DNA of 64,000 bases from an uncultured Ignavibacteriaceae bacterium. GTDB lineage: Bacteria > Bacteroidota > Ignavibacteria > UBA10030. A model generated the notes under the pieces. The model saw only the letters and a list, made by a program, of their open reading frames with translations, made no database searches and had not been told where the DNA came from. A program made the translations under genes and the position numbers. The stretch covers positions 8,764-72,763 of the forward strand of contig CAZOMY010000010.1 in the NCBI GenBank assembly GCA_964581115.1, read 5' to 3'. Positions within the stretch are counted from its first letter, which is position 1; every line of letters begins with the position of its first letter. Shown one piece after another: positions 12,417-36,014 of the stretch.

Positions 12417-12467
12417 GTTCGGTGTTCGTCCGATACTGAGGCCGGCCGCGTCGTCAGAACGGGCCGG

Positions 12468-13307: not shown

Positions 13308-13367
13308 CGATGTGCTATGTGTGCCGTGCGTGCCTCAGGTGTCTTCTATGGCGCGTATGCTCGAACG

Positions 13368-15203: not shown

Positions 15204-15306
15204 TGGTTCGATCCAGTGGCGAGATATGGGATGCGGCTCATGCTCAGATGGTAGCCGCCAAACGCCTCATCCGCAATGACCGCGCCTGTCTTCCTCACAT
15301 CCATCG

Positions 15307-17304: not shown

Positions 17305-17381
17305 ACGAGCTCGGGCGATGTTCCTTGAACAACAACGGCGGCCCCATCAGCCGCCGCCGGTCATTGGCCTCACCTTGCTCC

Positions 17382-18359: not shown

Positions 18360-18382
18360 CGACGACTGTCCGCGCTGATCGG

Positions 18383-19693
18383 TCAGGCGTGCGCGAGCGC
18401 CGGACGATGTCCGCGGGCTCCGTAGTATGCGATGTAAGCGTAGCACAGGACAGGAATGATGAACGCCGACTGAATGCCGATCGAGTCGGCCAGTACGCCC
18501 TGCAAAACAGGCACGATGGCGCCGCCGACGATCGCCATACACAGGATCCCCGAGCCCTGGCCGGTGTGACGTCCCAGTCCATGGATCGCAAGCGTGAAGA
18601 TGGTCGGGAACATGATGGAGTTGAACAAGCCGACCGCGAGGATCGCCCACATCGAGACGTGACCCGTCGAGAGGATCGCGGTGATGACCAGCATCATCAC
18701 CGCGACGGCATGGATGGTCAGAACCCTTCCCGGAGCGACGGAGCGCATGACCGCCGATCCGATGAAGCGACCGACCATGGCTCCGCCCCAGTAGAATGAG
18801 ACGTAGCGACCCGCCTCTGCTACCGACATGTCGCCGATCGACGGCTGGCTGATATAGTTTACCAGGAAGCTTCCGATGGCGACCTCCCCGCCGACGTAGA
18901 CGAAGATGGCGATGGCGCCCAGGACGAGGTGACGGTACCGCCAGGCGCTCGGATGCAGATGGTCCTGATTGTGCCCGCTCTCCGACGCCGCCTCGGACGC
19001 TTCGACCCGCGGAAGCTTGAACAGGCCGAAGACGAACGCGACGATCAGCAATGCCGACGCCAGGCCGATGTATGGATTCTGGACCGACGCCGCCTCGGCC
19101 GCCCGGTACGCCTCGACCTCCACCGCACTCATAACGTTCAATTCCGCCGGCGTCTTGACGGCGTTCGAGAGGATGATCCACGAACCGAACAAGGGCGCCA
19201 CGGTGGTGCCGAGCGAATTGAACGCCTGCGTGAGCGTCAGACGGCTGCTGGCGGTCTCGGGCCGGCCCAAGATGGCCACGTAGGGATTCGCCGCCACCTG
19301 TAACAGCGTGATACCCGACGCGAGAATGAACAACGCGATGAGAAAGATCTCATACGATCTCTCCCCCGCCGCCGGGTAGAACAGGATGCAGCCGACGGCC
19401 GCCGTCACGAGGCCGACGATGATGCCGGCCTTGTAGCCGAACTTTTCGACGAACCAACCCGACGGCAACGAAACGACAAAATACGCCGTGAAGAAGCTGA
19501 ATTGAATGAGCATCGCTTGGGCGTAGTTCAGGTCGAACACCGCCTTGAGGTGCGGAATGATGATGTCATTGAGACAGGTCAGAAAGCCCCACATGAAGAA
19601 GAGCGACGTGAGCACGGTCAACGCCGGCGTATAGTTTGCCGACGGCGGTACGTCGACCATCTTCGTGGGTGTCGTGCCGGGGGTCGAGGCCAT
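18383..19693 (-). CDS. gluP: Glucose/galactose (GluP/FucP-type) MFS transporter
   Basis: [70 protein letters not shown]; about 12 TM segments. Confidence 0.93.
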
Positions 19694-19766
19694 ACAGGTC
19701 TGGTGTGGATCGGAATGGGTTCAGGTCTTCCGGGCAAGCCCGGCGTTCATGAGATCTGCCAGCAAC

Positions 19767-21566: not shown

Positions 21567-21657
21567 GTGTGGCTCCGATTCGCTGATGACATCCGTAGAC
21601 CCGGGTCGACCGTCAGGACGCCGGGAACCATGCGATAGTACTTCGGTCGTTCCGGCG

Positions 21658-22677
21658 TCAGAACTGCACGCCGAGGGTGATCTTCTGAACGCTGGCCAGG
21701 CGCGCAAAGTCCTGGTACGCGTAATCAAGGCTTAACCGCACATTGCCGATGACATACTGACGGACACCCAGGCCGAGCGCCAGGCCTTCCTCCGAGTCGG
21801 CAAGGAAGAGGGTCTTGTATCCTCCGCGTACATACAGCACGTCGTTGAACTGGAACTCGCCTCCGACATTCACGCTCTCGAAATCGTCGCTGGGGTGCTG
21901 TGCGTCGGCCGCGAGCGTCAGATGGCCCACCTCGCCCATCGGCAGGTCGTAGGCCAAGCCGACGCGAAAGTTGAGAGGAAGCTCCCATTCCTCCGTGGCC
22001 AACTGGGCGGGGATACGGCCGTTGTTGCCCGAACCCGACGGGTCCGGGTCATAGAGCACCAGCGCGTTGTTCCCCTGCATCTGTATCTTCGTCCCGAAGT
22101 TGGAGATCGACATGCCGAGCGTGAACCCTTCGAACGGCGTGCGGTATTTGACGCCAAGGTCGATGGCGAAGGCCGTCGCGCTCATCTTCCAGATCTTCTG
22201 GTGGACGAACTTCGGCGTGAACCCGATGGCGAATGCGTCCGTCAACTTGATGCCGTACGACAATCCCACGGCCAGGTCGGAGACCCCGAACACCTCTCCC
22301 GTCCCCTCCTGACGCTCGACGGTCGTCACCGCCATGTCGCCGATGTTCGACATCGTCACGCTGAAACCGACAACCCCGATCGGTCCGGCCGAGACCGTCG
22401 CACCGACGTAGTTGTAGGTGATATCGGCGATCCACGAAGTATTGTCGACCAGGAATCCAATGCCCTCGAGATCTGCAAGGCCGGCGGGGTTCCAGTAGAG
22501 GGCCGACGGGTCATTGACCACGGCCACGAACGCCCCGCCCATGGCCATGCCGCGGGCTCCCTGCGCGATCGAGAGGAAGGTCGCGGCGGTCGTGCCGCGC
22601 TTCGAGACATTCTGCCCCACGACGGTCGTGCCGACGGCGATGAGGCCCAAGAGCAATCCGAGAACGATCCGTTTCAT
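21658..22677 (-). CDS. PorV/PorQ-like outer membrane beta-barrel
   Basis: Signal peptide; GTTAATFLSIAQGARGMAMGGAFVAVVNDPSALYWNPAGLA N-terminal motif; alternating beta-strands; ends in aromatic GVQF. Confidence 0.85.
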   Translation of the reverse strand: MKRIVLGLLLGLIAVGTTVVGQNVSKRGTTAATFLSIAQGARGMAMGGAFVAVVNDPSALYWNPAGLADLEGIGFLVDNTSWIADITYNYVGATVSAGPIGVVGFSVTMSNIGDMAVTTVERQEGTGEVFGVSDLAVGLSYGIKLTDAFAIGFTPKFVHQKIWKMSATAFAIDLGVKYRTPFEGFTLGMSISNFGTKIQMQGNNALVLYDPDPSGSGNNGRIPAQLATEEWELPLNFRVGLAYDLPMGEVGHLTLAADAQHPSDDFESVNVGGEFQFNDVLYVRGGYKTLFLADSEEGLALGLGVRQYVIGNVRLSLDYAYQDFARLASVQKITLGVQF

Positions 22678-22684
22678 GTTCGCC

Positions 22685-25600
22685 TCACTTCACGATCGCG
22701 AATTTACCGACATGCTCGCCGACTCCGGGGGCTTCGACGTGGTAGATGTACAGACCGTAGGCGACCTCCATCCCGTCGTCGGAGATGAGGTTCCAGGGCA
22801 ACGATCCATCCATCGGCGACGAGTTTTTTCGAAGCGTCGCGACGAGTCCGCCGCTCACGGTGTAGATGCGCACCGTACATTGGGCCGGGAGGTTCTTGAA
22901 CTCGATCTTGCGTTCGCCCCGCCCCGTCACATACAACGTACGCCGCTCCCACGACGCGGTTGCGATGTAAGGGTTCGGCACGACCGCGATCCGGTCAAGG
23001 CCGTTTTTGGCGCCCTCAAGGTCGGTCCGCGAGCCGCGCGTCGTGAACTGGAACTCGTCTCCCGTCAGGAAAGGCCGGAGCGTCTTGATGAGATACCGGT
23101 CGTCCGGTTGAGGATAAAGCGTGTCGGCTCCGAACGGCCGGCCGTACGTCAGCTTCCACGTGAACTTGAAGTTCGACGGACTGACGAATTGCTCCAGCAC
23201 CCGGATCGTGTCTCCAATGCTCAACGTGTTTGAACCGTCGATGTCGTGCACGATGAATTTCGACCGCCCGCCCGTCCACAGGTTGGTGACGGTGAAATTG
23301 ACCGGCATCAGGGGATACTTCGACGCTGGTGCATTCAACGCCGTCGTGTCGACCACATGGTCGAACCACTTGATCTCGTAATCGGTCGGCCATGCCACGG
23401 CCCGCGAGGTCACCGTCATGTCGCGCGCCACGCGCATGAACAGGTTGCTGCGGCCGACCACCCATCCGGTCGCGGAGTCATTCAGCACCACGGCGGTGTC
23501 ATTGGCCACCGACAGCACCATTCCGTCGAACGGCGGCGAGAACCGTCCGGCCCCGATGTTGGCACTATCCAGGCCCCGATACAGCGTGTCCGTCACCGTT
23601 CCGGTCGTTCGGAACAGATCATACGATCGTGTTCGGTAGGCAGGAACGGTCGAATCGGCCTTGAAGCGGACGGTATACCGAGCCCCGTCGATCACCTGGC
23701 TCGGGTCAAGGATGATCAGACCGAGCGAGCCAGTACCGAGGCCGGAGGTCACCCGTTGAAGATCCCCCTCTGCCGTCGGCGGCTGGTAGCCGGCGGCCGG
23801 TCCGTTGGGAGTCACGACCGCACAGTTGATATCGATGAACTTGAGCGAGCCGGCGAAATCCTCCGTGATGATCTTGGTGCACTCTGTCGGCTGCAGCCCT
23901 TTTGTGCCCCGGTTCGGATCACCGGTGTCATACGAGACGAGGGCATAGTAGTAGCGAACGCCGTTCAGGACGGTCGTGTCGATGTAGGAGTGGACGAGAC
24001 CGGTGTTGGAGCCCCGCCAGAAGCTCGCGCCGTTGATCCCCACAGGGTCAGGTCCCGCGATGCTGTCGACGATGTCCCACTGAGCGATCGGCTTCCAGTA
24101 CTTGCCGGATCCCTTGGAATCCGTGATGATCTTGATATCGTTGAATTCCGCCTCCGTACTCCGGTACAGAAGATACCCCTCGAAATCCCTCTTATAGCCC
24201 TTCGAAGGGTCGCTCGGATCCTGGAGACCCATGAAGCGGTCCACGGAGCGTTCCGCCGTGTTGTCCCAGTAGAGGAACACGCGGCCATTCCCCGGTACGG
24301 CGGTCAAGCGCGGCGTGAAGGGCGGCTTGGAGAAGTTGTAATTGGCGTTATAGATCTCCTGGACCGTTTCCTTGTTGAAGATCAGGTCATCGAGGTTCTC
24401 GCCGAGAGCGAGAGCCATGGAGAAGCGCTCCCGCCTCCCTTGCCGGAGCGGGAACGGCCCCGACGAAAAGGTCATGCTGATGTTCGTGTTGGCAATGGCC
24501 GTGTCACGGAATCCGCTGTTCATCTTCTGCCAGATGATCTCGTCATTCTTCGGCCAGCCGCCCGACGGTCCCTTGTCGGCCAACGCCCAGATCGCCGCCG
24601 AAGAGAGACCGATCTGGTCCGACTCATCCTTGTCCGTCTGATCGAAGTTCGGTTCGCCCGTCGTCGGAACGCCGTCTCCCTCCCCCGGATCCGGCCCGGA
24701 GTACTGCAGGTCGGTCGGACCGACGCCGTCCCGTCCCAGGTCGTCGTTCAGCGGCTCACCGGGATCCCATGTTCCGCTGGCATTCAGATCGGTGAAGGAC
24801 ACCCAGTCGTTGTCATTGTCAAGGAGGTCGTCGCGGCGTTCGTCGATCATGCCGTCTTCGTCGTCGTCGAGCCCGTTCAGGGCATTGCCGGGGCTCTCGA
24901 GGTAGGCGTAGCCGACGTAGCCCGTTTTCCAGTTGTCGGGCACCCCCATGCCGCTGGTATTCCATGCGTAGGCCAGGTCCAAGAGCGAGTTGTACCGTGC
25001 GCTGTTGCCTGATGCGCTCGGTCCGCCCACACCGGGGTCGGTGTAGAAGCCGAAGCAGGTCGAATCGTAGTCCCAATCGGAGATGTTGACGATGTCGTAG
25101 TGCCAGAAGATGATGTCCTCCGCCAGAACGTGCGACCACTGAAAGCCGCGCACTTCGACGCGGAATCCGAGACCTCCGCGGGCGGAATCGCCGGCGACCG
25201 GATAGTAGAGGAATGGCGGCCGCGTGAACTCACGGTCTTTCGAGTCGTCCATGACGAAGAAGGTCTCCAGGTCGGAGTTCGTCACGCCCCGTCCGAAGTA
25301 GCCGTACCAATGACCGTTCCATGATGGGTCAAGGCCAAGCGCCGACGGCCAGAACCGAGGGAACGTGGACGTGTCGCGGTTGACGGCCGGGGTGGGCGTG
25401 GGTCGACGGCTGGGGTTGTCGTATCCCGGCACCGGCTGCAAGACCCACTCCATGCCCGTAACCGGGTCTCGATCGACCTCCTCGCGGTATGCCGACAGAA
25501 TGGGAGAGATGATGTTCCCGTTGCCGGGAGCGATCGTGCGCGCACCGATGAGAACGGCGACGCCGTCCATGTACGAGTGATTCGTCCCCTTGGGCCACAC

Positions 25601-26131
25601 CACCGACGGCTGGAAATTCCATTTAGCCACTTCGCCGTGGTTGTAGAACAACGTCGAGATGAGGTTGCCGTTCATGACCCCCTCTCGACGGGCCGTCACA
25701 TCGCCCAGCCGGTCTGCGCGGTAGACGATCGTGCTCGGGTCGAGCACGACATCGCCAAAGGCCGTCACCCGCACCGGTCGCGGAACCGTCGAGGAATTGC
25801 TCGTGAACGTGACGGACGCGGTGTCCAGACCGGCTTTGCGCGGACGCCAGGTCATCGTCACCTGAAAGGAGTCTCCCGGCGCGATGACGGCGAGAGCGGG
25901 ACCGAGCTTGAGGGCGAAGTTCGATGAAGCCGCTGCGGAGATGGTCAGCAGACCCGAACCGGTATTCTTCACGAACAGCTGGGTCGAGGCGATCGGCTGA
26001 CCCACCCTCACGCTCCCGAGATGGAGGGAATCGGAGTTCGGCGTCAGGACGGGTTGTGCCACGGCGGACGTCGCGCCGGCAAGGAGGAGTGCGCACACAT
26101 GCGTTCGGATCACGGTCAGCTCCTGGACCAT
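22685..26131 (-). CDS. Large secreted protein of unknown function: Ig-like (ASH-type) domain, conserved core, acidic Ca-binding-like repeats, Fn3, atypical CTD
   Basis: Signal peptide (start ATG 26131 or GTG 26113, which has AGGAG); DSLHLGSV...LFVKNTGSGLLTI Ig domain; GNLISTLFYNHG core; DDDEDGMIDE/DNDND repeats; PRLTAVPGNGRVFLYW; C-terminal IAVVPNPY...IEFKNLP...IRIYTVSG-like...GLYIYHV...KFAIVK. Confidence 0.85.
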   Translation of the reverse strand: MVQELTVIRTHVCALLLAGATSAVAQPVLTPNSDSLHLGSVRVGQPIASTQLFVKNTGSGLLTISAAASSNFALKLGPALAVIAPGDSFQVTMTWRPRKAGLDTASVTFTSNSSTVPRPVRVTAFGDVVLDPSTIVYRADRLGDVTARREGVMNGNLISTLFYNHGEVAKWNFQPSVVWPKGTNHSYMDGVAVLIGARTIAPGNGNIISPILSAYREEVDRDPVTGMEWVLQPVPGYDNPSRRPTPTPAVNRDTSTFPRFWPSALGLDPSWNGHWYGYFGRGVTNSDLETFFVMDDSKDREFTRPPFLYYPVAGDSARGGLGFRVEVRGFQWSHVLAEDIIFWHYDIVNISDWDYDSTCFGFYTDPGVGGPSASGNSARYNSLLDLAYAWNTSGMGVPDNWKTGYVGYAYLESPGNALNGLDDDEDGMIDERRDDLLDNDNDWVSFTDLNASGTWDPGEPLNDDLGRDGVGPTDLQYSGPDPGEGDGVPTTGEPNFDQTDKDESDQIGLSSAAIWALADKGPSGGWPKNDEIIWQKMNSGFRDTAIANTNISMTFSSGPFPLRQGRRERFSMALALGENLDDLIFNKETVQEIYNANYNFSKPPFTPRLTAVPGNGRVFLYWDNTAERSVDRFMGLQDPSDPSKGYKRDFEGYLLYRSTEAEFNDIKIITDSKGSGKYWKPIAQWDIVDSIAGPDPVGINGASFWRGSNTGLVHSYIDTTVLNGVRYYYALVSYDTGDPNRGTKGLQPTECTKIITEDFAGSLKFIDINCAVVTPNGPAAGYQPPTAEGDLQRVTSGLGTGSLGLIILDPSQVIDGARYTVRFKADSTVPAYRTRSYDLFRTTGTVTDTLYRGLDSANIGAGRFSPPFDGMVLSVANDTAVVLNDSATGWVVGRSNLFMRVARDMTVTSRAVAWPTDYEIKWFDHVVDTTALNAPASKYPLMPVNFTVTNLWTGGRSKFIVHDIDGSNTLSIGDTIRVLEQFVSPSNFKFTWKLTYGRPFGADTLYPQPDDRYLIKTLRPFLTGDEFQFTTRGSRTDLEGAKNGLDRIAVVPNPYIATASWERRTLYVTGRGERKIEFKNLPAQCTVRIYTVSGGLVATLRKNSSPMDGSLPWNLISDDGMEVAYGLYIYHVEAPGVGEHVGKFAIVK

Positions 26132-26135
26132 CTTC

Positions 26136-28859
26136 TCAGAAATTCCACGTGACACCCAACCGTACCTGGCGCGGTGCCGAGAACGAGGCTGGGTTGTTGA
26201 CATACTCGTCGATCGTGTTCAGGCCGATGATCCGGCCTGCGAGGTACGTGTAAAGGTCGATATTCGCTCGTCCGCTGGCGGTATTGACGCCGTACTCGTT
26301 CTTCGTGTCGAGCAGGTTGTACACGAGCGCGAACACGGTGAGATCCACCGGGCCGAACGAGATGGTCTTTTCAGCCCGTAGGTCGACGTTGAAGGTCGTC
26401 GGTCGGGTGCCGCCGTTCTCGAAACGGAGGCCGTTCGACACGCGTACATCTTCGGTGTATGGGAAGCCATTCCCGTACTGTGCGATCAGGCCGACGTTCC
26501 AGTCGCCCGGGTCGCCCACCGTCACCGAGACGTTCAGCGTCGAACGCTGGTCCCAGTCGAGCGGCACGACCTTCTTGTTGGTTTCGGTGGGCGGATCGGT
26601 CTGGTTGTTGTAGTACACGGCATACGGGTCGGAAGCGTTCCCCTCGGCGATCTGATAGGTGTAATCGGCCCGTACACTGAAGCCGCCGATGAAACGCCGC
26701 TCGAGGCTCAGGATGAACCCCTTCACGTTCGCATAGTCTCGATTGATGAAACGCGAGAACCGGAAGCCTTCGTAGGTGCTCAGGATCTCCATCCCGAGCA
26801 GATTGCGGATGTCCCGATAGTAGATGGTGAAATCGAGACCCAACTGACCGAAGAGCACCTGCTGCAATCCGAGTTCGTACATCACCGTTCGCTGCGCTTC
26901 GAGGTCCGGATTGCCGAGAATGCTCGAAAGGTTGTCGCCCTGGTTGACGAGATAGTTGGAGTTCAGGTAGAGGTTCTCGAAACTCGGGATCTGGAAGAAG
27001 TGCCCATACGAGAAGTGGATGATCCCTTCGTCGGTGATCGGGAACGATACACCGAGCCGTGGACTCACCTGGACCTTCGGCGTCGTCTCTTTGACACGAC
27101 CGGCGTTCGGAAACTCCGGGTTCCCCGACGGGTTACGCAGGTCGAGTGGATACGACGCGTTCGGGTTGAAATAGTCCACCCTCACACCTGCATTGATGAT
27201 CATGATATCGAATTCGATCTTATCCTGCGCGTAGGCGGAGAATTCGTACGGCTCCTTGAAGTAGAGCGTGTGGCCCGACGTGCCGACATCCGGATAGCCG
27301 ATCTCAAAGAGGAGGGCCCCGGTACTGTCCGTCAGCACGGTGTTTCGGTTCAGGATCGTCTTCCAGTGGTTGTAGATCTCGTGCATGCGTCCCTCGATGC
27401 CGATACCGATCTTGTGGTGGGCATCGAGCTGGGACGAAAGCGACCACTGACCGATCCACGACCGGGTGTGACGGTCGTAGCGGTCGGAGGCCTGTCCGCC
27501 TGAACGGAAGGTGTAGTTCGAAATGGGCGTTCCCTGCGAGGGGTCGACATACCGGGGGTCGAACTCGTCCTCGTACACATAACCCTTGTAGTCGAACTGA
27601 TTGTACGATGCCTTGAAGGTCTGGTAGGTATTCGCCGTCGGAGAATGGGTGACCTGGAATGACGAGACCCAGTTCGTCCGGTAGTGGTTCATGATGCCGT
27701 CGGGCGTTCGGGAGAATCCATGATCATAGTACTTGTTCCAGTGGTCCTCCCACAGCAGACTCCCGCTGAACTTCAGATACCCCAGGCTGTACGAAAGCTT
27801 CCCGTTCGCCGTGGTGCGCTTCGTGGGATTCATCGGGACATACGCACCGTCTCCGGAGTGAGGGATGATATAGACCGGATCGCCGTTCGGCAACAGGATC
27901 GCATTGCCGATCGGGTCGCGCAGCTGGTACGGCGAACGGTCCGATGTTCGGAACACACGACGGCCGTACAAGTAGCCGTCGTCCTGGTATGCGCGCAGGC
28001 TGCCGAAGAACGAGAATCCGCCGGCGATCGGGCCGCTCAGGCTTCCCTGAATGTTGGCCGTCCGGAACGGATCGACCTGTATCAGGTTCATGTAGGTGGA
28101 ATGGTGCGACGTGATGTAGTCGCCCGCATACATCGACAGGGAGCCGTGGAAATCCGAGGCCCCCTCCTGTGTGACGATATTCACGACGCCCGACATTGCC
28201 TGGCCGTACTCCGCGTTGAAGGTGCCGCTGATGACCTCCATTTCGCGGATCGTCGTATTGTCGACCTCGACGCTCATGCGGCCGTTGAACGGGTCGACCA
28301 CCGAGACGCCGTCGATGAGGTACGCCACTTCGTTCGACCGACCGCCGCGGAAATGGCCGCCGACGACACCCGCCTGAATGTTGACCACCTGGCTCAGGTT
28401 CTCCGTCGGGATGCGCTTGAGGTCGTCCGCCGAGAGTGTCACAGAGCTCGACGTCAGGTCCTTCTGGACCAGCGGCCGCTCGGCTCGGACGATGACCTCC
28501 TGTCCTTCGATCGCTTCCGCCTGTAACTTGGCGTCGACGCGGGTGGTCTGGTCGATACGTACCTGCACATTCGTCACCGTCGTCCGGCGATAGCCGACGT
28601 AGCTCACCACCACTTGATACACCCCGGGAGGGATGTTGTTGATCGTGTAATGTCCGTCGACGTCGGTCGTCGTTCCCAGGGTCGTACCGACCAGCAGAAC
28701 ATTCGCACCGACGAGCGGCTCGCCCGTCGTGTCGTCGGTGATCGTGCCGGCGATCTTACCGGTCGTGCCGCCCAACACCAGGGCGGGTATCAGCAGGAGC
28801 ATCCACAGCAGACCGGCGGCGCGGCCGCCGCGCTCGAAGTGGCGTCGGAAGGGATTCAT
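26136..28859 (-). CDS. TonB-dependent receptor (carboxypeptidase-regulatory-like N-domain + plug + barrel), not SusC-type
   Basis: GTTGKIAGTITDDTTGEPLVGANV; plug HFRGGRSNEVAYLIDGVSV...MEVISGTFNAEYGQAMSGVVNIVT; barrel SPRLGVSFP...FSYGHFFQ; terminal PRQVRLGVTWNF. Confidence 0.93.
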   Translation of the reverse strand: MNPFRRHFERGGRAAGLLWMLLLIPALVLGGTTGKIAGTITDDTTGEPLVGANVLLVGTTLGTTTDVDGHYTINNIPPGVYQVVVSYVGYRRTTVTNVQVRIDQTTRVDAKLQAEAIEGQEVIVRAERPLVQKDLTSSSVTLSADDLKRIPTENLSQVVNIQAGVVGGHFRGGRSNEVAYLIDGVSVVDPFNGRMSVEVDNTTIREMEVISGTFNAEYGQAMSGVVNIVTQEGASDFHGSLSMYAGDYITSHHSTYMNLIQVDPFRTANIQGSLSGPIAGGFSFFGSLRAYQDDGYLYGRRVFRTSDRSPYQLRDPIGNAILLPNGDPVYIIPHSGDGAYVPMNPTKRTTANGKLSYSLGYLKFSGSLLWEDHWNKYYDHGFSRTPDGIMNHYRTNWVSSFQVTHSPTANTYQTFKASYNQFDYKGYVYEDEFDPRYVDPSQGTPISNYTFRSGGQASDRYDRHTRSWIGQWSLSSQLDAHHKIGIGIEGRMHEIYNHWKTILNRNTVLTDSTGALLFEIGYPDVGTSGHTLYFKEPYEFSAYAQDKIEFDIMIINAGVRVDYFNPNASYPLDLRNPSGNPEFPNAGRVKETTPKVQVSPRLGVSFPITDEGIIHFSYGHFFQIPSFENLYLNSNYLVNQGDNLSSILGNPDLEAQRTVMYELGLQQVLFGQLGLDFTIYYRDIRNLLGMEILSTYEGFRFSRFINRDYANVKGFILSLERRFIGGFSVRADYTYQIAEGNASDPYAVYYNNQTDPPTETNKKVVPLDWDQRSTLNVSVTVGDPGDWNVGLIAQYGNGFPYTEDVRVSNGLRFENGGTRPTTFNVDLRAEKTISFGPVDLTVFALVYNLLDTKNEYGVNTASGRANIDLYTYLAGRIIGLNTIDEYVNNPASFSAPRQVRLGVTWNF

Positions 28860-28870
28860 AGGATCGGCGG

Positions 28871-28906
28871 AGAAAAGAAAGGGGCGCACCGGGGTGCGCC
28901 CCTTTC
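28871..28906 (-). terminator. Intra-operon intrinsic terminator/attenuator
   Basis: 14-bp perfect inverted repeat GAAAGGGGCGCACC-NN-GGTGCGCCCCTTTC followed on the minus strand by TTTTCT; 8 nt after the stop at 28915. Confidence 0.75.
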
Positions 28907-28914
28907 CGGGTTGG

Positions 28915-31419
28915 TCACTTCACGAGCAGCATCTTCCGGATGGCGGCGTTGGCTCCCGCCTCCAGCCGGAGGAAGTACACGCCGGATGCGATCGAGCGAC
29001 CCGACCGGTCGGCGTTGAACGTGACGACATACGAGCCGGCGTCCTGCGTGCGGTCGACCAGCGTCTCGACCTCGCGGCCCATCATGTCATACACCCGCAG
29101 ACTCACAGGACCCGACGTTGGAACGCTGTAGCGGATCTCCGTGGTGGGGTTGAACGGATTCGGATAGTTCTGGCCCAGCTCAAACGACGTCGCAACGTCG
29201 CTCACCTGTTCGACGCCGACCGTCGAGGACTTGTCGCCGATCCAGGTGTAGGTCCAGTAGAACATGTCGCTCCACGAGTTGTCGTTCGTCAGCGTCGAGT
29301 AGCACATGATGCCATCGCGCGTCGCCTTCGTGTCGCGGTCGTTGATGGCGAAGTCGATCGGGATGCGCATGCCTTCCACCGGCGAGAAGAGCGCGTCGCC
29401 GGCATGGAGCGCCGCCAGGTCCGTCCAGCGGATGCGCGCTTCAGACACGTAGCCCGGCGAAAGCAGCTTCTCCGTCCAAGCATAGTCGGCGCTGATGGTG
29501 TCAACCCGCTTGCCGCCGTTGTCGAGCCAGATGCGGTGCTTCGAGAACCGGAGGTGATAGTCCGGGGTCGCGCCGCGCGTGTAGCCTGAATGCCGCTTCC
29601 CGCGCCAGTCATACAAGCCCACGAAGATATCGGCGCAATCCTGCTCGTAGTCCGTCGCACCGATATCGACCAGAACGACGTCGTCGGTGACGTCGAAAGC
29701 GACATAGAGATAGGTCGCGTCCATGGCGACATAGGCCGTCGCCGACAGGTCGTTGTCGCCCGTGATCGGGAAATTCGGCACGGCATGCGCCGTTCCCGAC
29801 ACCGTCGACAGGACGAACGGCGTGATCGTCGACCATTCAGACAGATCGCCGTCGGCCGTAAAGGTCGCTGGACCCGTCTTCGAGATCGTCGGCACGCCTT
29901 TCGCCAGCGTCGTCACCGGGGTCGTCATGATGACCGGCGAACTCTCGTTGCCGGCCGGGTCCTTCGACACGACGCCGTAGTAGTAGGTGAGATTCGCATC
30001 GGTCTTCGGAACGCGGAGCGGATGCGTCGCCACCGCGCTGGTAATGTTGTACGGCGGCAGGTCTTCGACTGTCGAGTCGTCGACGGCGGTCCACGGATGG
30101 TCGGCGAAGTACACGTTGTAGCGAATGCCCGGCTCGTTCGGGACGTCGTTCCAGGTCACCAGATTGACGTAGCCGGTGCCCGCGCCCGCAAGGCCTGAAG
30201 GCGCATCCGGCGGAATGACGTCAAACTCGGGCGCCCCGGTCCACAGGTCGGTGATGTAGATGACCTTGCCTGCGATGCCGGAAGCTTCGGCCATGATGCC
30301 GAACGTGTTGACGTTCGACGAGTCAAAGCCCGTCGTGCCGTCCTGATAGACCATGTTTCGGAGGGCAAAGATGTAGTCGTGCCATGCACCGTCGGCGGTC
30401 GGGGTGAAGACCACGCCGACCTTTCCCTTCTGGCTGGGATCGCCCAGACGCGGAGACTCGAACTGAACGCGAAGCGCGCCGACCCCTGCTTCAGCCTTCA
30501 TCTTGAACTTGAGGCTGTCCTTCACCCAACCGCCGGCGAGGTTGAAACCGGGGTTGATGTCGAAGCCGATACCCGTCCAACCGTTGCCCCATTCGTTGCC
30601 CTGCGTCCACTTGATGGCGTTCGTCTTCGGCAACGGACCGGCGTTTAACTCGAGCGTGATCGATGATTGGCCCCAAGCCCACTTATTCGTGATCTGCGGC
30701 GAATAGTCGCGACCGTTGAACATAACGGCCGGCACCGCCCGCAACCCGAACCGCTGGAAACCGTCCAGCTTGAATTCGAGCGAGTCGGCCGGGAGGTTGG
30801 CACCCGGGTCCCAGCCAGAAGTCACGAACGCGATCTTCCAGCCGACGATCTTGTCGCGGTCGAACTTCTTGTTGTTGTAGGTGAAGCCGCCCCAGTTCGT
30901 CGGGGCGTAAACAAAGCCGGCGTCGCTCGGGACCGTCGAGCCGTCCGAGACCCGCTCGGTCAGGGGGATCTTCAGATTGACCCAGTCGCTCACGGCATCC
31001 AGGATCGTCGCGTTCTCATACAGCCAGTCCTCTCGCGTACCATCCGTCGAGTCGACGAGGTGGATGCGCATGACCATATTCGCCGGGATCTTCGGCGCTT
31101 CGGTCACCTTGATCCAGATGCTGACGGAATCGCTGATGCTGATGTCGACCACGGTACCGCTCGGCCAGCGCGCCTCGATCTGCGAGAAGGAACCCCATCC
31201 ATGGAACGCACCAATGGCCGTCCGGATGTTCGTCGAAGCGATCCCCTCCTGCTTGTCGGCGAGGTCTTGCGTCATCCTGATGTACGTCGGAGCCCCTTCC
31301 GACGCAAAAAAGAATGCCGAATCGGGATTCGGGGTATCAAAGGACTCGATGACCGTCTGGCCGAATGCCGGAACGGCAACGAGCGCCATGATGACCAGTA
31401 GGAACTGTAGCATCCGCAT
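28915..31419 (-). CDS. Non-catalytic T9SS cargo with two galactose-binding-fold/CBM-like domains, Fn3-like and CBM9/DOMON-like sugar-binding domain
   Basis: Strong RBS AAAGGAGA; signal peptide; aromatic-rich jelly-roll-like segments; DVIPPDAPSGL Fn3 start; ADGDLSEW...DLSATAYVAMDATYLYVAFDVTDD CBM9-like; CTD QNYPNPFNPTT...SGVYFLRL. No GH catalytic motif recognised. Confidence 0.75.
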   Translation of the reverse strand: MRMLQFLLVIMALVAVPAFGQTVIESFDTPNPDSAFFFASEGAPTYIRMTQDLADKQEGIASTNIRTAIGAFHGWGSFSQIEARWPSGTVVDISISDSVSIWIKVTEAPKIPANMVMRIHLVDSTDGTREDWLYENATILDAVSDWVNLKIPLTERVSDGSTVPSDAGFVYAPTNWGGFTYNNKKFDRDKIVGWKIAFVTSGWDPGANLPADSLEFKLDGFQRFGLRAVPAVMFNGRDYSPQITNKWAWGQSSITLELNAGPLPKTNAIKWTQGNEWGNGWTGIGFDINPGFNLAGGWVKDSLKFKMKAEAGVGALRVQFESPRLGDPSQKGKVGVVFTPTADGAWHDYIFALRNMVYQDGTTGFDSSNVNTFGIMAEASGIAGKVIYITDLWTGAPEFDVIPPDAPSGLAGAGTGYVNLVTWNDVPNEPGIRYNVYFADHPWTAVDDSTVEDLPPYNITSAVATHPLRVPKTDANLTYYYGVVSKDPAGNESSPVIMTTPVTTLAKGVPTISKTGPATFTADGDLSEWSTITPFVLSTVSGTAHAVPNFPITGDNDLSATAYVAMDATYLYVAFDVTDDVVLVDIGATDYEQDCADIFVGLYDWRGKRHSGYTRGATPDYHLRFSKHRIWLDNGGKRVDTISADYAWTEKLLSPGYVSEARIRWTDLAALHAGDALFSPVEGMRIPIDFAINDRDTKATRDGIMCYSTLTNDNSWSDMFYWTYTWIGDKSSTVGVEQVSDVATSFELGQNYPNPFNPTTEIRYSVPTSGPVSLRVYDMMGREVETLVDRTQDAGSYVVTFNADRSGRSIASGVYFLRLEAGANAAIRKMLLVK

Positions 31420-31469: not shown

Positions 31470-31732
31470 GAGCGCCGACGGCCTGTTGACTGGCAGCCGG
31501 GGACCACCTCCAAGACCGGCTGTGGAATCAATCTTCGTACCACGCTGAGTTGCCTGTTTTCCGTCAACAGAGGGGAATGCGACGGCGATAGAGAGCAAAA
31601 AATTATCGGAACAATAATATCCCTTCCCGCTACCAACAGCGTGGATCCGCCTTCGCAAGGAGGCCGAATCCTCAAGAAATGAACGAATTGAACGTTTATG
31701 AAGGGTGGACCGTGCTGTGGACCCGACAGGGA

Positions 31733-33193
31733 TCAGGACTTGAGCCCCAAGTCCTTGCACATTCGATGATAGTTCGGGGGTGCCAGGCCAAGTTTCTTCG
31801 CGGCCTCGGCATCGGAAGAGGAATTCGACCGGACAAACTGGAAATACCGGAGACGGAACAACCTCTCCATCTCACGCAACGGCAAAAGATCGTCCGTACT
31901 GCTGAAAGCAATAGTGTGCGGGCTGTCTGGCGGGGGGATCGCAGGGGCGAGGGAGAGGTATTCCGACACGATGTCGGCCGTGATCACCGACTCGCCCATC
32001 AGCAGCAGGCGCTGTACGACATTCTTGAGCTCGCGCACATTGCCCGGCCAGGCGTAACCGGCGAGCACGCGGTGGGCGCCGTCCTCCGTCATCGGCGCAG
32101 GCACGCCCATGTCGAGGCTCATCTGGCGGACAAAATGTTCCCACAAGACGGGAACATCCTCTTTCCGGTCCTTGAGCGATGGAAGGTGGATCGGCACGAC
32201 GTTCAGACGATAGAACAGGTCTTCGCGGAATCGACCGGAGGAGATCTCGTTCTGAAGGATCTTGTTCGTAGCCGCAATGATCCGGACATCGACCTTGGTA
32301 CGGTGTGTCCGTCCGATCTTTTCGATCTCGCCGTCCTGCAACACCCTCAGCAGCTTGACCTGCGCCGGCAATGGGAGCTCGGCGACCTCGTCAAGAAAGA
32401 TCGTTCCGCGATGGCCCGCCTCGAACAGGCCGATCTTGGGACGGTCGGCTCCCGTGAAGGATCCCTTTTCGTGTCCGAACAGTTCGCTCTCAACAAGATG
32501 ATCGGGAATGCTTCCGCAATTGATCGGCACATAGTTCTCCAGCCGGCGGCCGCTCTGATAATGGATCTGCGATGCCACGAGTTCCTTCCCCGTGCCCGAC
32601 GCGCCGCTGATCAAGACGGAGGCATCGGTTGAAGCCACCTGGCGGACCTGCGCCCGGACCTTTTGGATCGCAGGCGAGACGCCGATCAACCGCGTGCGAG
32701 CCAGCACCTCCTCGGCATTACGGACCAGTTTGCCTTCGGTTCGGTCCTGCTCGCGTCGCAGCCGGCGTTGTTCCGCTGCGTTGACAATGCTGAGGATAAA
32801 ATCCGTCGGCTGATAGATCGCCTCCTCAATGTCGGTCGGATACTTCGTGCAATACCAGAACGCACCGGACTTGAGAAGCCGGTTGGCGAACTCATAGTCG
32901 GTGATGTTCACCGTCATCTTGGTGATGACGATGATGGGCAGCGACGGTTGCCAGCGTTTGATCTCGCGAATGAGCGCCTCGCCCATCACACCACCCGCGA
33001 TCTGCATGTCCATGATGACGACGTCGAGGTTCTCCCCTTCCGCACGAACGAGGTCGATCGCCGCGTCGCCATGCGACACGACCTGCCGGATCTGCAGCTG
33101 TTCGGCGAAGGGCTGCAGCGTACGGCGGACGCGGCGCACGTCGAAAGCCTCGTCTTCGATCAGCAGGATCCGTACCGGGTGGGCGACGAGCAT
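31733..33193 (-). CDS. Sigma-54-dependent response regulator (NtrC/NtrX-like: REC + AAA+ + HTH)
   Basis: ILLIEDE, VIMDMQ (phospho-Asp), Walker A GASGTGKE, ESELFGHEKGSFTGA, Walker B IFLDEV, RFREDLFYRLNV, WPGNVREL, C-terminal AAKKLGL. True start 33193. Confidence 0.93.
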   Translation of the reverse strand: MLVAHPVRILLIEDEAFDVRRVRRTLQPFAEQLQIRQVVSHGDAAIDLVRAEGENLDVVIMDMQIAGGVMGEALIREIKRWQPSLPIIVITKMTVNITDYEFANRLLKSGAFWYCTKYPTDIEEAIYQPTDFILSIVNAAEQRRLRREQDRTEGKLVRNAEEVLARTRLIGVSPAIQKVRAQVRQVASTDASVLISGASGTGKELVASQIHYQSGRRLENYVPINCGSIPDHLVESELFGHEKGSFTGADRPKIGLFEAGHRGTIFLDEVAELPLPAQVKLLRVLQDGEIEKIGRTHRTKVDVRIIAATNKILQNEISSGRFREDLFYRLNVVPIHLPSLKDRKEDVPVLWEHFVRQMSLDMGVPAPMTEDGAHRVLAGYAWPGNVRELKNVVQRLLLMGESVITADIVSEYLSLAPAIPPPDSPHTIAFSSTDDLLPLREMERLFRLRYFQFVRSNSSSDAEAAKKLGLAPPNYHRMCKDLGLKS

Positions 33194-33210
33194 ACGCGAA
33201 TGGGGATCGT

Positions 33211-34713
33211 TCAGGCCGTGAAGGCGAAGGTGAATCGGGCGCCGCTTCCCGGGATGTTCTCTGCATTCAGCGACCACCCGAGACGTTGGGTGGCGATCTC
33301 GTGAGCGATGAAGCAGCCGTAGCCGGAGTGTTCCTTGGATCCTTGGGGCGCGGCGCTGACATGCTCCAGGAACAGCCGCTGGATGCCTCGGACGTCGGGC
33401 TGAAGCAGTTCGTTGCGGATGCCACGGCCATTGTCCTCGACGACGATCGTGGCCTGCCGGGAGGATGCGTCGTAGGTTGTGCGCACGTGCACCACGACGC
33501 CTGCAACGCCCGCGTGGTCGAGGGCGTTCTGGAGCACCGGTTCGACGATCTCCCACAGGACATATTCATTGACGGCGACGCAAGGCAGGTGGGGGTCGAG
33601 GTCGAGGTCGAACCGGAACGTGGAGGTTCCGCCGGCGACACGGCGGAAAATGTTGTCGACCAAGAATCGAAGGACCTCGTTGATGTCGGTCGAGAACATC
33701 GGCCCGCGCACGGTCTGGATCGGCGGGTCGTACCATTTCATATCATAGATGACGCGGGCAATGAAGCTGGCGTACTTGCCGATGCGATACCGCACCTCCT
33801 CCATGTTGGCCACGGTCATCGAGCGGAGATCTTCCTTGATGAAGCCTCCGATCTTCTCAGCCTTATGGTGGGCATGATAGATCCTCTTGGCGAAGATCGT
33901 CTCTTTTTGATGATGGATCTCATCGGCCAGATGGCGCTTCTGCTCCTCGAACAGCGCCTGGAGGGCGTCGTTCCGCTCGCGGAGCGTGCGCGTCGACACC
34001 ACGTACATCCCAAGAAACCCTATGAAGATCAGGCCGGCATAGACCAGCGCCGTCTGGTCGTTGATCGCCGAAAGGGCGCCGGTCAAGAATGAGAGGTCGG
34101 GGGCGCTCTTCATATAGACGGCCCCGGCAAACTCACCCTGCGGCACAAAGGGCACGAACACGTGAAAAGCCCCGAGGTCATCGACCACGGTGGTGATCTG
34201 CTCCCGATGGCGCAGACGCGGCTCCAGCATGCGGTACCATCGCAAGGCTTCGGCATGCGCGACCGTATCGCTCCGAACGTGTCCCCCCTCGCGGTACAGC
34301 AGCTCGAACAGCTCTTGCCCGTCGTCCACGATCGCGAGTCCCTCCGGCCCTCGGATGAGAATGCAGACACTCTGGACGTTCTTGTCGAGCAACTGTTGGC
34401 TGAAGATGATGTTGAACTCCTGCACGATCTGCAGGGCCCGGTCGTCGCTCATCGACTGTCGCGTCGGGTGCGATTCGAGCAGCAGTTCGATCGACGTGGC
34501 TGAAAGGTTGGCGATGCGTTCGGCGGCGTCCTGTCGGTACCACTGCTGGGTCTGGTCGAACACGTCGTGGAGCGCGCTTTGGTTCAGGAACAGGACGATG
34601 ATTTGAAAGCCGATCAACACCAACAGCAGAACGGTGAGATGGCGGATCTCGAACCGGTATTTGCGCAGCGGATGCAGGAGCGCTGCGAAACGGGCCTGGA
34701 AATCGGGCCTCAT
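33211..34713 (-). CDS. Membrane sensor histidine kinase with periplasmic domain and atypical H-box
   Basis: Two TM helices flanking a ~190 aa periplasmic domain; HATPase VLQNALDH, VEDNGRGI, HSGYGCFI; H-box region reads RIYHAHHKAEKIG. Confidence 0.8.
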   Translation of the reverse strand: MRPDFQARFAALLHPLRKYRFEIRHLTVLLLVLIGFQIIVLFLNQSALHDVFDQTQQWYRQDAAERIANLSATSIELLLESHPTRQSMSDDRALQIVQEFNIIFSQQLLDKNVQSVCILIRGPEGLAIVDDGQELFELLYREGGHVRSDTVAHAEALRWYRMLEPRLRHREQITTVVDDLGAFHVFVPFVPQGEFAGAVYMKSAPDLSFLTGALSAINDQTALVYAGLIFIGFLGMYVVSTRTLRERNDALQALFEEQKRHLADEIHHQKETIFAKRIYHAHHKAEKIGGFIKEDLRSMTVANMEEVRYRIGKYASFIARVIYDMKWYDPPIQTVRGPMFSTDINEVLRFLVDNIFRRVAGGTSTFRFDLDLDPHLPCVAVNEYVLWEIVEPVLQNALDHAGVAGVVVHVRTTYDASSRQATIVVEDNGRGIRNELLQPDVRGIQRLFLEHVSAAPQGSKEHSGYGCFIAHEIATQRLGWSLNAENIPGSGARFTFAFTA

Positions 34714-36014
34714 TTGAGCAACACCGTGTTCGTGCGGACCATGGCGTCGGCCTGTCGGAGAGCGTCGTCGACGGCCAGCTCACCCCGGATCGCACGGTGG
34801 AAGTAATGCGAGACGACGTCGGACGTGCGGGTGTAGTCGACGATCATCGGTCGGTGAAAGCCGCGCTGGACGAGTCCGTGGTAGAAGGAGAGTTCGGGAT
34901 GCGCAACGATCAGGCTCGAATCGCGATACACCTCCGAATGGACCGGAATGAAGCCGCTCCGTACGAACAGGAGCCGCTGCGAGCGTGGGGCTTGAAGGAA
35001 TCTGATGAATTCAACCGCCTCGGCCTTCTTCAACGAAGCACGCGAGACCATCAGGTTCCATCCGCCGAACACCGACCGCGAAGCGCCGCCTCGGCTGTGC
35101 GGCAGGGGCGCCCGTCCCACCGAACGAAGCTTGGCCGTGTCCGGGTAGAACCCGGCGAAGTTCTCGATAAAATTCGGCCACCCTCGCACGAAGACGGCGT
35201 CGCGGTCCAGGAAGTACCGATAGCTTTGATTCTCGTCGAAGACGGTCGCCTCCGCCGGCGTCCACCCCTCCTGCACGAAGCGTATAAGACGTGCCAGAGC
35301 AGATTTCGCCGCCGGTACTCTCATATCGAGCCTGTTCCGATCGAGATAGGTGCTGTCGTCTCCCATAGCTTGTTCAAGGAAGCAACAGACCAGGCCTTCG
35401 TAGGCCTTGGCAGGGTAGAGAAAGAACGGGCGATGCTCGTACCCCATGCGCCGGCGCAGCGCATCCAGTTCGTCCCATGTCATCCCCTCCTGCAATCGCC
35501 GCTCGACCGCCGCGCCGTCGGGCAGGCTTCGAATGAGGTCCCGCCGATAGTAGAGGAGCCCGACGTCGAGATACATCGGAGCCGCGACGAGCGTGTCGCC
35601 GACGATGCACGAGGACAGCGCCGTGGCCATGAACTTGTTGCGCTCGTCGGGAGGAAAGTAGGCGTCGAGCGGCTCTCCCCACCGGGCGAACCTTGAGACC
35701 CAGATCAGGTCCACCGCGAACACGTCGAGCTTCTCGCTCTTGCTGCGCAGGGAGCGCGCAAGCAACTCCTTGCGCTCATTCGTCGAGAATTTGTCGAATG
35801 GCAGGTCGACCGGCACCACTTCGATCCGGCCGGCATAACGACGGTTAAACTCGGCGATCAGCTCGCGATGAGCCTGCGAGATATGGTCGGCGTAGTAGAC
35901 GCGAACCGGATCGGAGCCGTTGGCCGGGCCCAATGGAGGTCGGAGGTACGCGTTCAGGGCCAGCAACAGCGCAAAGCTGGCCGCCACGAGCAGGGCAAGG
36001 TTCCTCAGCCGCAT
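34710..36014 (-). CDS. Extracellular sugar-binding protein (ABC SBP family 1 fold) with no ABC permease/ATPase nearby
   Basis: LDVFAVDLIWVSRFA, DVGLLYYRRDL, TWDEL, YEGLVC, AVFVRGWP, SVFGGWNLMVS, EAVEFIRFL; ATGA overlap with the kinase. Confidence 0.88.
   Translation of the reverse strand: MRLRNLALLVAASFALLLALNAYLRPPLGPANGSDPVRVYYADHISQAHRELIAEFNRRYAGRIEVVPVDLPFDKFSTNERKELLARSLRSKSEKLDVFAVDLIWVSRFARWGEPLDAYFPPDERNKFMATALSSCIVGDTLVAAPMYLDVGLLYYRRDLIRSLPDGAAVERRLQEGMTWDELDALRRRMGYEHRPFFLYPAKAYEGLVCCFLEQAMGDDSTYLDRNRLDMRVPAAKSALARLIRFVQEGWTPAEATVFDENQSYRYFLDRDAVFVRGWPNFIENFAGFYPDTAKLRSVGRAPLPHSRGGASRSVFGGWNLMVSRASLKKAEAVEFIRFLQAPRSQRLLFVRSGFIPVHSEVYRDSSLIVAHPELSFYHGLVQRGFHRPMIVDYTRTSDVVSHYFHRAIRGELAVDDALRQADAMVRTNTVLLK

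Follow-up and report, generated by a model that had tools for sequence, protein, structure and literature searches.

Histidine kinases stimulated by solute-binding proteins (SBPs) are established (PMC8050422), the cellobiose sensor CuaDSR among them (PMC10384115). The three adjoining genes described here, encoding an SBP, a membrane kinase and an NtrC-family activator (hereafter, the triad), seem to belong with such SBP-dependent "three-component" systems as AioXSR and CuaDSR: the SBP gene lies beside the kinase and regulator genes, there are no nearby ABC genes, and the extracytoplasmic domain of the kinase is placed between two transmembrane helices. No description of this triad family was found in the literature searched, and it appears to be undescribed.

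The arsenite system AioX-AioS-AioR of Agrobacterium and other Proteobacteria likewise combines an SBP that plays no part in transport, a kinase whose periplasmic portion is a single Cache-like domain, an NtrC-type activator and an adjacent operon (PMC8050422). However, AioX is of the phosphonate-binding SBP family and binds arsenite, whereas the triad SBP is of the SBP_bac_1 family; in addition, the triad kinase has a distinct H-box without a HisKA match, the predicted triad targets are glycan uptake and degradation genes, and the lineage is the FCB superphylum rather than Proteobacteria. AioR is a sigma-54 activator. Membership in AioXSR was rejected on account of the SBP family and of the neighbouring genes, which are CAZymes and not arsenite oxidase genes.

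CuaD-CuaS-CuaR of Ruminiclostridium cellulolyticum and XylFII-LytS-YesN of Clostridium beijerinckii also place a dedicated sugar SBP beside a two-component system, with a breakdown product inducing sugar genes, but both are found in Gram-positive bacteria and target ABC transporters (PMC10384115; PMC8050422). In contrast, the output of the triad is a sigma-54 enhancer-binding protein, and its predicted regulon is a TonB-receptor/type IX secretion locus with MFS import. XylFII-LytS-YesN has a LytS-type kinase and an AraC-type regulator, and neither its regulator nor that of CuaDSR is known to be sigma-54-dependent; nor is ChiS, the Vibrio chitin sensor, known to work through a sigma-54 activator. 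ChiS shares with the triad a periplasmic oligosaccharide-binding protein (CBP) that controls a membrane sensor for polysaccharide degradation after outer-membrane uptake (PMC8050422; PMC12704726), but CBP is of the SBP_bac_5 family, additionally supplies an ABC transporter and keeps ChiS repressed while no ligand is bound (PMC8050422; PMC10667598), and the periplasmic domain of ChiS is dCache-like (PMC8050422). In Enterobacteriaceae, QseG-QseE-QseF likewise unites a kinase and a sigma-54 activator with an accessory periplasmic protein (PMC6075780), although QseG is a lipoprotein of the outer membrane instead of an SBP, and the system functions in envelope homeostasis, not in sugar sensing. Finally, the HTCS, SusR and ECF-anti-sigma regulators of Bacteroidota PULs resemble the triad in that each glycan locus has a single sensor facing the periplasm, encoded at the border of a TonB-receptor/CAZyme cluster, and in that members lie beside different CAZyme sets, whereas the triad consists of three proteins instead of one polypeptide, has a sigma-54 output in place of an AraC-type domain, and accompanies a receptor without a SusD partner.

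The triad and the adjoining beta-glucan locus

Within the window (the whole 64-kb stretch of DNA analysed), the triad is encoded on the reverse strand by genes for the SBP (34710..36014; 434 aa; Pfam SBP_bac_1, E=4e-15, also SBP_bac_8), the membrane histidine kinase (33211..34713; 500 aa; HATPase_c, E=3e-13) and the NtrC-family response regulator, a bacterial enhancer-binding protein (31733..33196; 487 aa; Response_reg, Sigma54_activat with E=1e-67, AAA_lid_14). The sequence-only reading of this DNA had noted an SBP gene overlapping the kinase start, an NtrC-like regulator next in order and a glucan operon directly downstream, all of which are borne out: the SBP stop and kinase start share an ATGA, the regulator combines REC, sigma-54 AAA+ and HTH domains, and Pfam and NCBIfam place a 28-kb beta-glucan degradation locus immediately after the triad. 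The activator ORF as listed (31733-33556) was over-extended and was replaced by one starting at the ATG at 33196, 14 nt past the kinase stop. In its translation a GSFTGA loop and, at the C-terminus, an HTH of the Fis type can be read, so that with its REC domain and an AAA+ domain bearing this GAFTGA-type loop it has all the features of NtrC-family enhancer-binding proteins; its NCBIfam matches are NtrC/AtoC-like, under equivalog cut-offs. No rpoN was present among the scanned ORFs of the window.

The first target gene (28915..31419, reverse strand) encodes an 834-aa CBM9-like surface protein (Pfam CBM9_1 and Por_Secre_tail, a type IX secretion C-terminal sorting domain), and a gene of this kind likewise comes next after the triad in related loci L001, L081 and L084. 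According to Pfam and NCBIfam scans, the rest of the co-directional locus (3749..28889, reverse strand) encodes a TonB-dependent receptor (26136-28889), a choice-of-anchor-D protein of 1172 aa (22685-26203), a PorV-family protein (21658-22677), a GH3 enzyme (19767-21566), an MFS importer (18383-19693), a ROK kinase (~17382-18340), a GH9 enzyme (15307-17304), an unknown protein (13368-15203), GH16 (12468-13307), GH3 (9321-12416), GH3-PA14 (6777-9272) and GH5 (5554-6780) enzymes, and a GH16-malectin protein (3749-5557), with type IX secretion assigned to the GH16, GH5, GH9 and GH3 enzymes. A divergent gene on the forward strand (1608..3626; Pfam Cellulase, CBM_6), with a signal-peptide-like start at 1608, encodes a secreted GH5-CBM6 glucanase and is probably a second transcription unit of the regulon. 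A canonical Bacteroidota PUL was rejected: NCBIfam and Pfam scans of the window returned no SusD-family match, the TonB-dependent receptor scored 78.8 against the SusC/RagA model (cut-off 368), leaving no susC/susD pair, and the regulator is the triad, not an HTCS, SusR or ECF system.

Among 80 related loci, 70 have the SBP, kinase and activator in the same collinear order, and a contig end truncates nine of the remaining ten; the triad is therefore not a chance arrangement. The order is kept in 43 of the 44 loci of at least 15 kb. In 14 of 61 triads the gap between the SBP and kinase genes is -4 (ATGA), and in 57 of them it is at most 33 nt. Together the three genes make up a single conserved cassette, translationally coupled and lacking ABC partners, a conclusion supported by several searches that uphold the absence of ABC permease and ATPase genes already remarked on in the sequence-only reading: none was found in the 64-kb window by a Pfam scan of large ORFs, in the annotation of syntenic relatives spanning 36-46 kb, or in a six-frame scan of the window for EAA, LSGGQ and Walker A motifs, where one LSGGQ match, in a spurious overlapping frame, was discarded. 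A CUT1-type sugar ABC importer was rejected for the window, which has the SBP_bac_1 fold but neither MalF/MalG-type permeases nor the ATPase.

Ligand, kinase and the division of sensing

The SBP begins with a hydrophobic helix that lacks a lipobox Cys and continues into a type-II sugar-SBP fold (AF2 model, pLDDT 88.9), for which the best Foldseek matches were MalE3 (6dtq) and TMBP (1eu8), with TM 0.76-0.87, and the profile match to 1eu8 in the PDB had E=4e-61. Among proteins of solved structure, its nearest relatives by structure and profile comparison are binders of disaccharides, for instance maltose and trehalose, and its own ligand may be a gluco-oligosaccharide. These relatives, like the fold itself, all come from ABC transporters, and several known signalling SBPs have dual functions (PMC8050422), as expected if the protein were mainly a transport component for an ABC importer encoded elsewhere that neighbours a two-component system through co-regulation or dual use, like Vibrio CBP, ChvE and GltB. 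We regard this as unlikely. In one locus, L021, the SBP gene does lie two genes downstream of a CUT1-type permease with an EAA motif, which counts against a purely sensory role, but in the other 79 of the 80 related loci no such motif occurs (about 10 kb around), nor does it in the window, and ABC families are absent from the top 25 Pfam families of first downstream genes. A transport role is also opposed by the position of the SBP gene, which always leads the cassette in translational coupling with the kinase gene, by the MFS or SSF importers that the loci bring with them (an MFS importer in the window), and by the Melioribacter genome, in which only MFS, SSS and TonB systems were named as probable carbohydrate transporters (PMC3534657). 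The SBP would then be dispensable for transport.

The kinase comprises TM1 (residues ~26-43), a PDC/sCache-like periplasmic domain (~46-205) and TM2 (~222-240), which continues straight into the DHp and then the CA domain. In the AF2 model (pLDDT 75.7 overall) the periplasmic part is an alpha/beta domain of ~160 aa between two hydrophobic helices, modelled with moderate confidence (pLDDT about 70-80). Although HATPase_c was its sole Pfam match, with none to HisKA, the DHp-CA region has the canonical fold and superposes on WalK, HK853 and ZraS in Foldseek; family conservation places an invariant RIYH-x-HHKAEK with H280 and H283 in the long DHp helix. Relatives outside the triad family were found by the CA domain only.

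PDC/Cache domains commonly bind small ligands, as in CitA and DcuS. Because PDC-type domains often bind ligands directly, the kinase might sense the sugar by itself, with the SBP only tuning sensitivity or buffering ligand and not needed for signalling, as reported for CuaD: in R. cellulolyticum, cellobiose is still perceived by CuaSR in the absence of CuaD, which just improves efficiency (PMC10384115). The divergence rate of the periplasmic domain also matches that of the SBP (mean pairwise distances 0.54 and 0.52, respectively). We nevertheless consider a directly sensing kinase quite unlikely, given that the SBP gene precedes the kinase gene in essentially every locus of sufficient length, often with stop/start overlap, and that large blocks of the periplasmic domain are invariant across loci with differing CAZyme content, a better fit to a protein-docking surface than to varied ligand pockets. 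No other pair of domains shows as high a correlation in divergence as the SBP and the kinase periplasmic domain (r=0.76; partial r 0.38-0.59), although simple linkage would also give such a mirror-tree correlation. The SBP and the kinase are presumed to make physical contact.

A shared palindrome and sigma-54-type promoters

Comparative analysis of the related loci yielded a family palindrome, TTATYR-N3-YRATAA, as candidate upstream activator site (UAS), frequently in tandem copies 21-23 bp apart. It clusters after the activator gene: of the 121 copies in related loci with a located activator stop, 54 lie within 400 nt past that stop, in about 2% of the sequence, and do so in 37 of 61 loci. 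A family promoter, TGGYNY-N5-TTGN, follows 34 of 86 UAS clusters (2.3 expected) at a distance of 57-111 nt, helically phased at roughly 11 nt; relative to the predicted start, the UAS falls at about -85 to -140. TTGA and TTGT are commoner than TTGC as the -12 element of the family promoter.

The only exact consensus match in the 64-kb window (TTATTG-TTC-CGATAA, 31603..31617, no strand assigned) lies between the activator and the first target gene, and with one mismatch allowed there are two matches versus 0.22 expected, both of them in intergenic regions that, alone in the window, contain -24/-12 elements at suitable positions. A -24/-12 promoter had been proposed ahead of the glucan operon, and we indeed find two candidates there. 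P1 (TGGTACGAAGATTGA, 31542-31528, reverse strand) matches the family promoter and lies 68 nt from the centre of the UAS, with the ATG of the first target gene following about 110 nt downstream; P1 is kept in L081, and L084 has a promoter of the same type, but the -12 element of P1 is TTGA where the canonical one is TTGC, which counts against sigma-54 control. P2 (TGGCAGCCAATCTGCA, 31468-31453, reverse strand; TGGCAG-N5-CTGCA), 35 nt upstream of the ATG, agrees at 9 of 11 consensus positions and has GG-N10-GC, but is conserved only in the close relative L081. P1 is accordingly the putative family-consistent promoter, and P2 a more canonical-looking second candidate of uncertain status. Upstream of the divergent GH5-CBM6 gene, the second candidate UAS (TTATCACATCGAGAA, 1446..1460, no strand assigned), with one mismatch, precedes a sigma-54-type promoter (TGGCTCAGTAATTGC, 1550..1564, forward strand) located 58 nt before the ATG at 1608.

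That the glucan locus is not what the triad controls, the palindrome being the site of an IHF-like or global regulator, is very improbable. The palindrome is AT-rich, contains TATCA and so resembles IHF sites, is common to all paralogues, and in 15 of 54 loci is also found upstream of the SBP gene with no promoter aimed at that gene. It is, however, symmetric, occurs in tandem at two helical turns, keeps the phased spacing and distance typical of enhancers, and tracks the activator gene, whose invariant HTH fits an equally invariant site. The proposal that the locus is switched on through sigma-54 is largely borne out as to its wiring, with a predicted activator site and sigma-54-type promoters before the glucan locus.

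We favour, as the probable reading, a periplasmic sensor dedicated to glycan detection, which would drive the neighbouring beta-glucan locus from sigma-54 promoters. Type IX-secreted glucanases would cleave beta-glucan extracellularly, and the TonB-dependent receptor would import oligosaccharides to the periplasm, where the transporter-less SBP, probably anchored at the inner membrane via its N-terminal helix, would bind a short gluco-oligosaccharide. Liganded SBP could then dock on the PDC-like domain and shift the kinase/phosphatase balance, leading to phosphorylation of the activator REC domain; as to the sign of control, the liganded SBP might activate, or ligand might lift a repression that apo-SBP exerts. 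The activator, bound at the palindrome and at its weaker copy, would remodel sigma-54 holoenzyme at P1 and at the promoter of the GH5-CBM6 gene, switching on both the receptor/enzyme operon and that divergent gene, and the MFS carrier would take the sugars into the cytoplasm.

Recurrence of the triad across genomes

The triad and its own putative DNA recognition site recur beside genes for sugar degradation in hundreds of genomes from uncultured, Ignavibacteria-like bacteria, the triad loci coming from Ignavibacteriota, Calditrichota, KSB1 and Cloacimonadota. It is conceivable, at somewhat less than even chances, that the triad is a general modular glycan sensor of SusD-less TonB-receptor/type IX secretion loci in Ignavibacteriota, Calditrichota, KSB1 and neighbouring phyla, a sigma-54 counterpart of the Bacteroides HTCS in which each paralogous SBP reads a different oligosaccharide and all activators share one enhancer. 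If so, sequence would allow glycan regulons to be predicted in hundreds of uncultured genomes. The near-invariance of the activator HTH and of the binding-site core among paralogues counts against the favoured reading of the triad as a dedicated sensor, in that it does not account for the separation of loci. A suggestion in the sequence-only reading, that the triad replaces HTCS/SusR logic, stands as an analogy, and the likeness is reasonable because family members adjoin diverse CAZyme/TonB-receptor loci in lineages poor in SusD. Among the first genes downstream of triads, the 25 top Pfam families include T9SS-tail, GH5, SSF, CBM6/35, TonB-receptor domains, GH16, GH3 and MFS.

The probable sensory triad and its conservation across genomes

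Three co-directional genes on the minus strand, at 31.7–36.0 kb, encode a sugar-binding protein (SBP) of 434 aa (34710-36014; Pfam SBP_bac_1 and SBP_bac_8), a histidine kinase of 500 aa (33211-34713; sole Pfam match HATPase_c), and a sigma-54 activator of 487 aa (31733-33196; Response_reg, Sigma54_activat at E=1e-67, and AAA_lid_14), the last bearing a GSFTGA loop and a C-terminal Fis-type HTH. As the sequence-only reading had proposed, the first two genes overlap, the SBP stop and the kinase start sharing ATGA. The activator starts 14 nt past the kinase stop, so the 607-aa ORF given from 33556 extends too far upstream. Spanning the activator stop codon is a perfect inverted repeat, AGGACTTGGGGCTCAAGTCCT (31735-31755, minus strand), with a 6-8-bp stem; it is unlike a classic terminator in that no T-run follows. 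The description of the SBP as an orphan also held: neither an ABC permease nor an ATPase was found in the window by Pfam scans, by a six-frame motif scan, or in the annotation of two syntenic relatives for 36-46 kb.

More than 849 SBP homologues were recovered in a word-indexed protein search, and relatives are present in at least 574 species genomes, labeled Ignavibacteriota, Bacteroidota (MAGs), Calditrichota, KSB1/Zhuqueibacterota, Cloacimonadota, and others. The order SBP-kinase-activator is held in 70 of the 80 best loci, and nine of the ten exceptions are due to a contig edge; an exceptional arrangement occurs in locus L041 (8316-12701), where an L-arabinose isomerase gene overlaps the SBP start (AraA-SBP-kinase) and no activator is adjacent. 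Among 61 complete triads, the gap between SBP and kinase genes is -4 in 14 and at most 33 nt in 57. Only one locus, L021 (92-5588), has an ABC permease motif nearby (CUT1-like, two genes upstream of the SBP), and its contig stops directly after the SBP. The triad can occur more than once per genome, with two copies (L006 and L014) on chromosome OY969585.1, and the flanking CAZyme sets vary, from GH5/GH30 (L083) to GH116 with CBM9/receptor (L084) to the alpha-mannosidase families GH92/GH47/GH125 (L085). The first downstream gene, assessed in 58 loci, typically encodes a T9SS-tailed protein, GH5, sodium:solute symporter, CBM6/35, GDSL esterase, TonB receptor, GH16, GH3, MFS, or GH2.

The predicted SBP structure (pLDDT 88.9) adopts a type-II sugar-SBP fold, and the nearest solved structures (Thermotoga MalE3, the Thermococcus trehalose/maltose-binding protein, a Thermus alpha-glycoside binder, SmoF, and LpqY) all have disaccharide-sized ligands. 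Both the window protein and its homologues begin with a hydrophobic helix that has no lipobox cysteine, which suggests a signal peptide or membrane anchor. There are strong grounds to infer that the SBP supplies the kinase with its ligand-binding input: the two genes are invariably adjacent and translationally coupled, ABC partners are missing, MFS/SSF importers are present, and no other pair of domains diverges in such close step as the SBP and the kinase periplasmic domain (r=0.76). Our best guess at its ligand, from locus content and the disaccharide-type fold, would be a beta-gluco-oligosaccharide of DP 2-4. The liganded SBP may activate the kinase, or apo-SBP may repress it.

The kinase model (pLDDT 75.7) runs from TM1 through a periplasmic domain, TM2, and a DHp helix to a CA domain, and superposes on the kinase cores of WalK, HK853, and ZraS. 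In this model the periplasmic domain (approximately residues 46-205) has the helix/beta-sheet architecture of the PDC/sCache type, and TM2 is continuous with the long DHp helix, which bears the invariant RIYH-x-HHKAEK. The H-box itself (KRIYH-x-HHKAEK...RVIYDMKW, residues ~270-330) goes unrecognized by every Pfam HisKA model. An exhaustive profile search returned about 20 full-length 50%-identity clusters, followed by a sharp drop to CA-domain-only matches, and detected no relatives of the sensor and DHp regions beyond those clusters; this drop indicates that the sensor and DHp parts define a discrete family. Its members are mostly annotated just as ATP-binding or hypothetical proteins, and Pfam and NCBIfam yielded no specific family for either SBP or kinase.

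A shared candidate enhancer motif and sigma-54-type promoters

We counted perfect palindromes in the 350 nt following the activator gene in 62 regions and compared them with matched coding controls. This singled out TTATYR-N3-YRATAA, which was absent from the controls and is present in 128 copies in 1.27 Mb of loci. Among loci with a located activator stop, 54 of 121 copies, from 37 of 61 loci, lie within 400 nt past that stop; copies also precede the SBP gene or genes further along the operon. Copies are often in tandem, paired 21-23 bp apart. A promoter-like element, TGGYNY-N5-TTGN, follows 34 of 86 motif clusters (2.3 expected), at palindrome-to-promoter distances of 57-111 nt that cluster in steps of ~11 nt.

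A strict TGGCAC-N5-TTGCA model was dropped, having yielded good sites after the activator gene in just 11 of 60 loci, and the model was relaxed because the -12 element downstream of the palindrome is usually TTGT or TTGA: in 35 family promoter sites, the base following TTG is T in 18, A in 9, and C in 8. The canonical form is TTGC, and standard GG-N10-GC searches miss about half of the family promoters. The enhancer was recovered solely through the cross-locus palindrome count; a search for shared k-mers and palindromes among three promoter regions of the window gave nothing convincing. The related locus L082 was dropped from footprinting, its promoter region being interrupted by an assembly gap (a run of N).

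A search for sigma-54 autoregulation of the triad found the palindrome upstream of the SBP gene in 15 of 54 loci but a promoter aimed at that gene in none. Covariation between variable positions of the enhancer and the activator HTH, sought as proof of binding, gave no signal, because the latter is nearly invariant. Across 38 triads whose members flank different CAZyme sets, there is hardly any variation in the HTH, SDAEAAKKLGLAPPNYHRMCKELGLK, or in the enhancer core, and such near-identity across paralogues raises the question of cross-talk.

Relation to known sensory systems

Kinases stimulated by SBPs are established, and include LuxP-LuxQ, TorT-TorS, ChvE-VirA, HptA-HptS, XylFII-LytS, AioX-AioS, BctC-BctE, CBP-ChiS, and GltB-GtrS (PMC8050422), as well as CuaDSR, which responds to cellobiose (PMC10384115). 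The triad is nearest in wiring to AioXSR, and nearest in function to CuaDSR, CBP-ChiS, and the Bacteroides HTCS, but none of these combines its SBP family, kinase family, sigma-54 output, and TonB/T9SS regulon. Neither full-text literature searches nor the genome papers on Melioribacter and Caldithrix mention the triad, and it is likewise absent from PULDB and from a 2025 survey of sigma-54 regulons; we therefore rate it as a widespread, uncharacterized variant of this established class.

Soils, sediments, and bioreactors harbor abundant Ignavibacteria-like bacteria that degrade polymers. Most of their CAZyme clusters are without the SusC/D hallmark, and substrates have not been matched to these clusters (PMC10576277); we found no description of how these clusters are regulated in the literature searched. 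A sensor cassette with a defined enhancer/promoter motif allows loci and regulons to be delimited by sequence alone. The family also represents natural sensors, predicted to bind oligosaccharides, whose input (SBP) can be separated from their output (sigma-54 promoter) and which could become biosensors, and it offers new cases both for the recruitment of SBPs from transport to signaling and for the avoidance of cross-talk among many paralogous enhancer-binding proteins that share one DNA site.

The glucan locus and its candidate promoters

The triad had been placed directly upstream of a glucan operon, and a same-strand beta-glucan locus does begin 313 bp downstream. This utilization locus of ~28 kb, which lacks SusD, encodes in order a CBM9-like protein with a type IX secretion tail, a TonB-dependent receptor, a 1172-aa choice-of-anchor-D protein, a PorV-family protein, GH3, an MFS transporter, a ROK kinase, GH9, an unknown 611-aa protein, GH16, two further GH3, GH5, and GH16-malectin; a GH5-CBM6 gene (1608-3626) is divergent. 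The only exact palindrome in the window is at 31603-31617, and of two candidates for the -24/-12 promoter noted ahead of the operon, the one that fits the family pattern is TGGTACGAAGATTGA (31542-31528), which starts 68 nt from the palindrome center. This element is conserved in the related locus L081, and its type is found again in L084. A more canonical-looking second candidate, TGGCAGCCAATCTGCA (31468-31453), lies inside the predicted leader.

Allowing one mismatch adds a single palindrome (1446-1460), for a total of two in the window versus 0.22 expected. It is situated 97 nt ahead of TGGCTCAGTAATTGC (1550), which is itself 58 nt before the GH5-CBM6 start. The predicted wiring, with the activator bound at the candidate enhancer and switching on sigma-54 promoters at either end of the glucan locus, is well supported by comparison across loci.

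Within the locus, a weak third -24/-12-like element, AGGCGCGGTCATTGCG (15287), occupies the 100-bp gap after GH9, ahead of the gene for the 611-aa protein (13368-15203, minus strand), which sits amid the glycoside hydrolase cluster and has no Pfam match. Another sequence fitting the family promoter pattern, TGGCTTCTTTTTTGT (5526, minus strand), falls 31 nt inside the longest GH16-malectin ORF (3749-5557), reflecting either a later start of that gene or chance.

The first four genes (21658-31419, minus strand) form an uptake module, also without SusD, that recurs in the related loci L001, L081, and L084: a CBM9-like T9SS-anchored protein, a TonB-dependent receptor with a CarboxypepD_reg N-domain, a choice-of-anchor-D protein of ~1150 aa, and a PorV/PorQ-family outer-membrane protein. 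In these lineages, the module may stand in functionally for SusC/D together with surface glycan-binding proteins.

By Pfam scans, the remaining large ORFs in the window are housekeeping genes only. On the other side of the triad (37500-41569, minus strand), a lysine-2,3-aminomutase-like radical SAM gene, a GNAT acetyltransferase gene, and two D-Ala-D-Ala-ligase-type ATP-grasp genes adjoin an M24 peptidase gene, with synteny kept in L081 and L082; the radical SAM and GNAT pair resembles the ablA/ablB route to N-epsilon-acetyl-beta-lysine.
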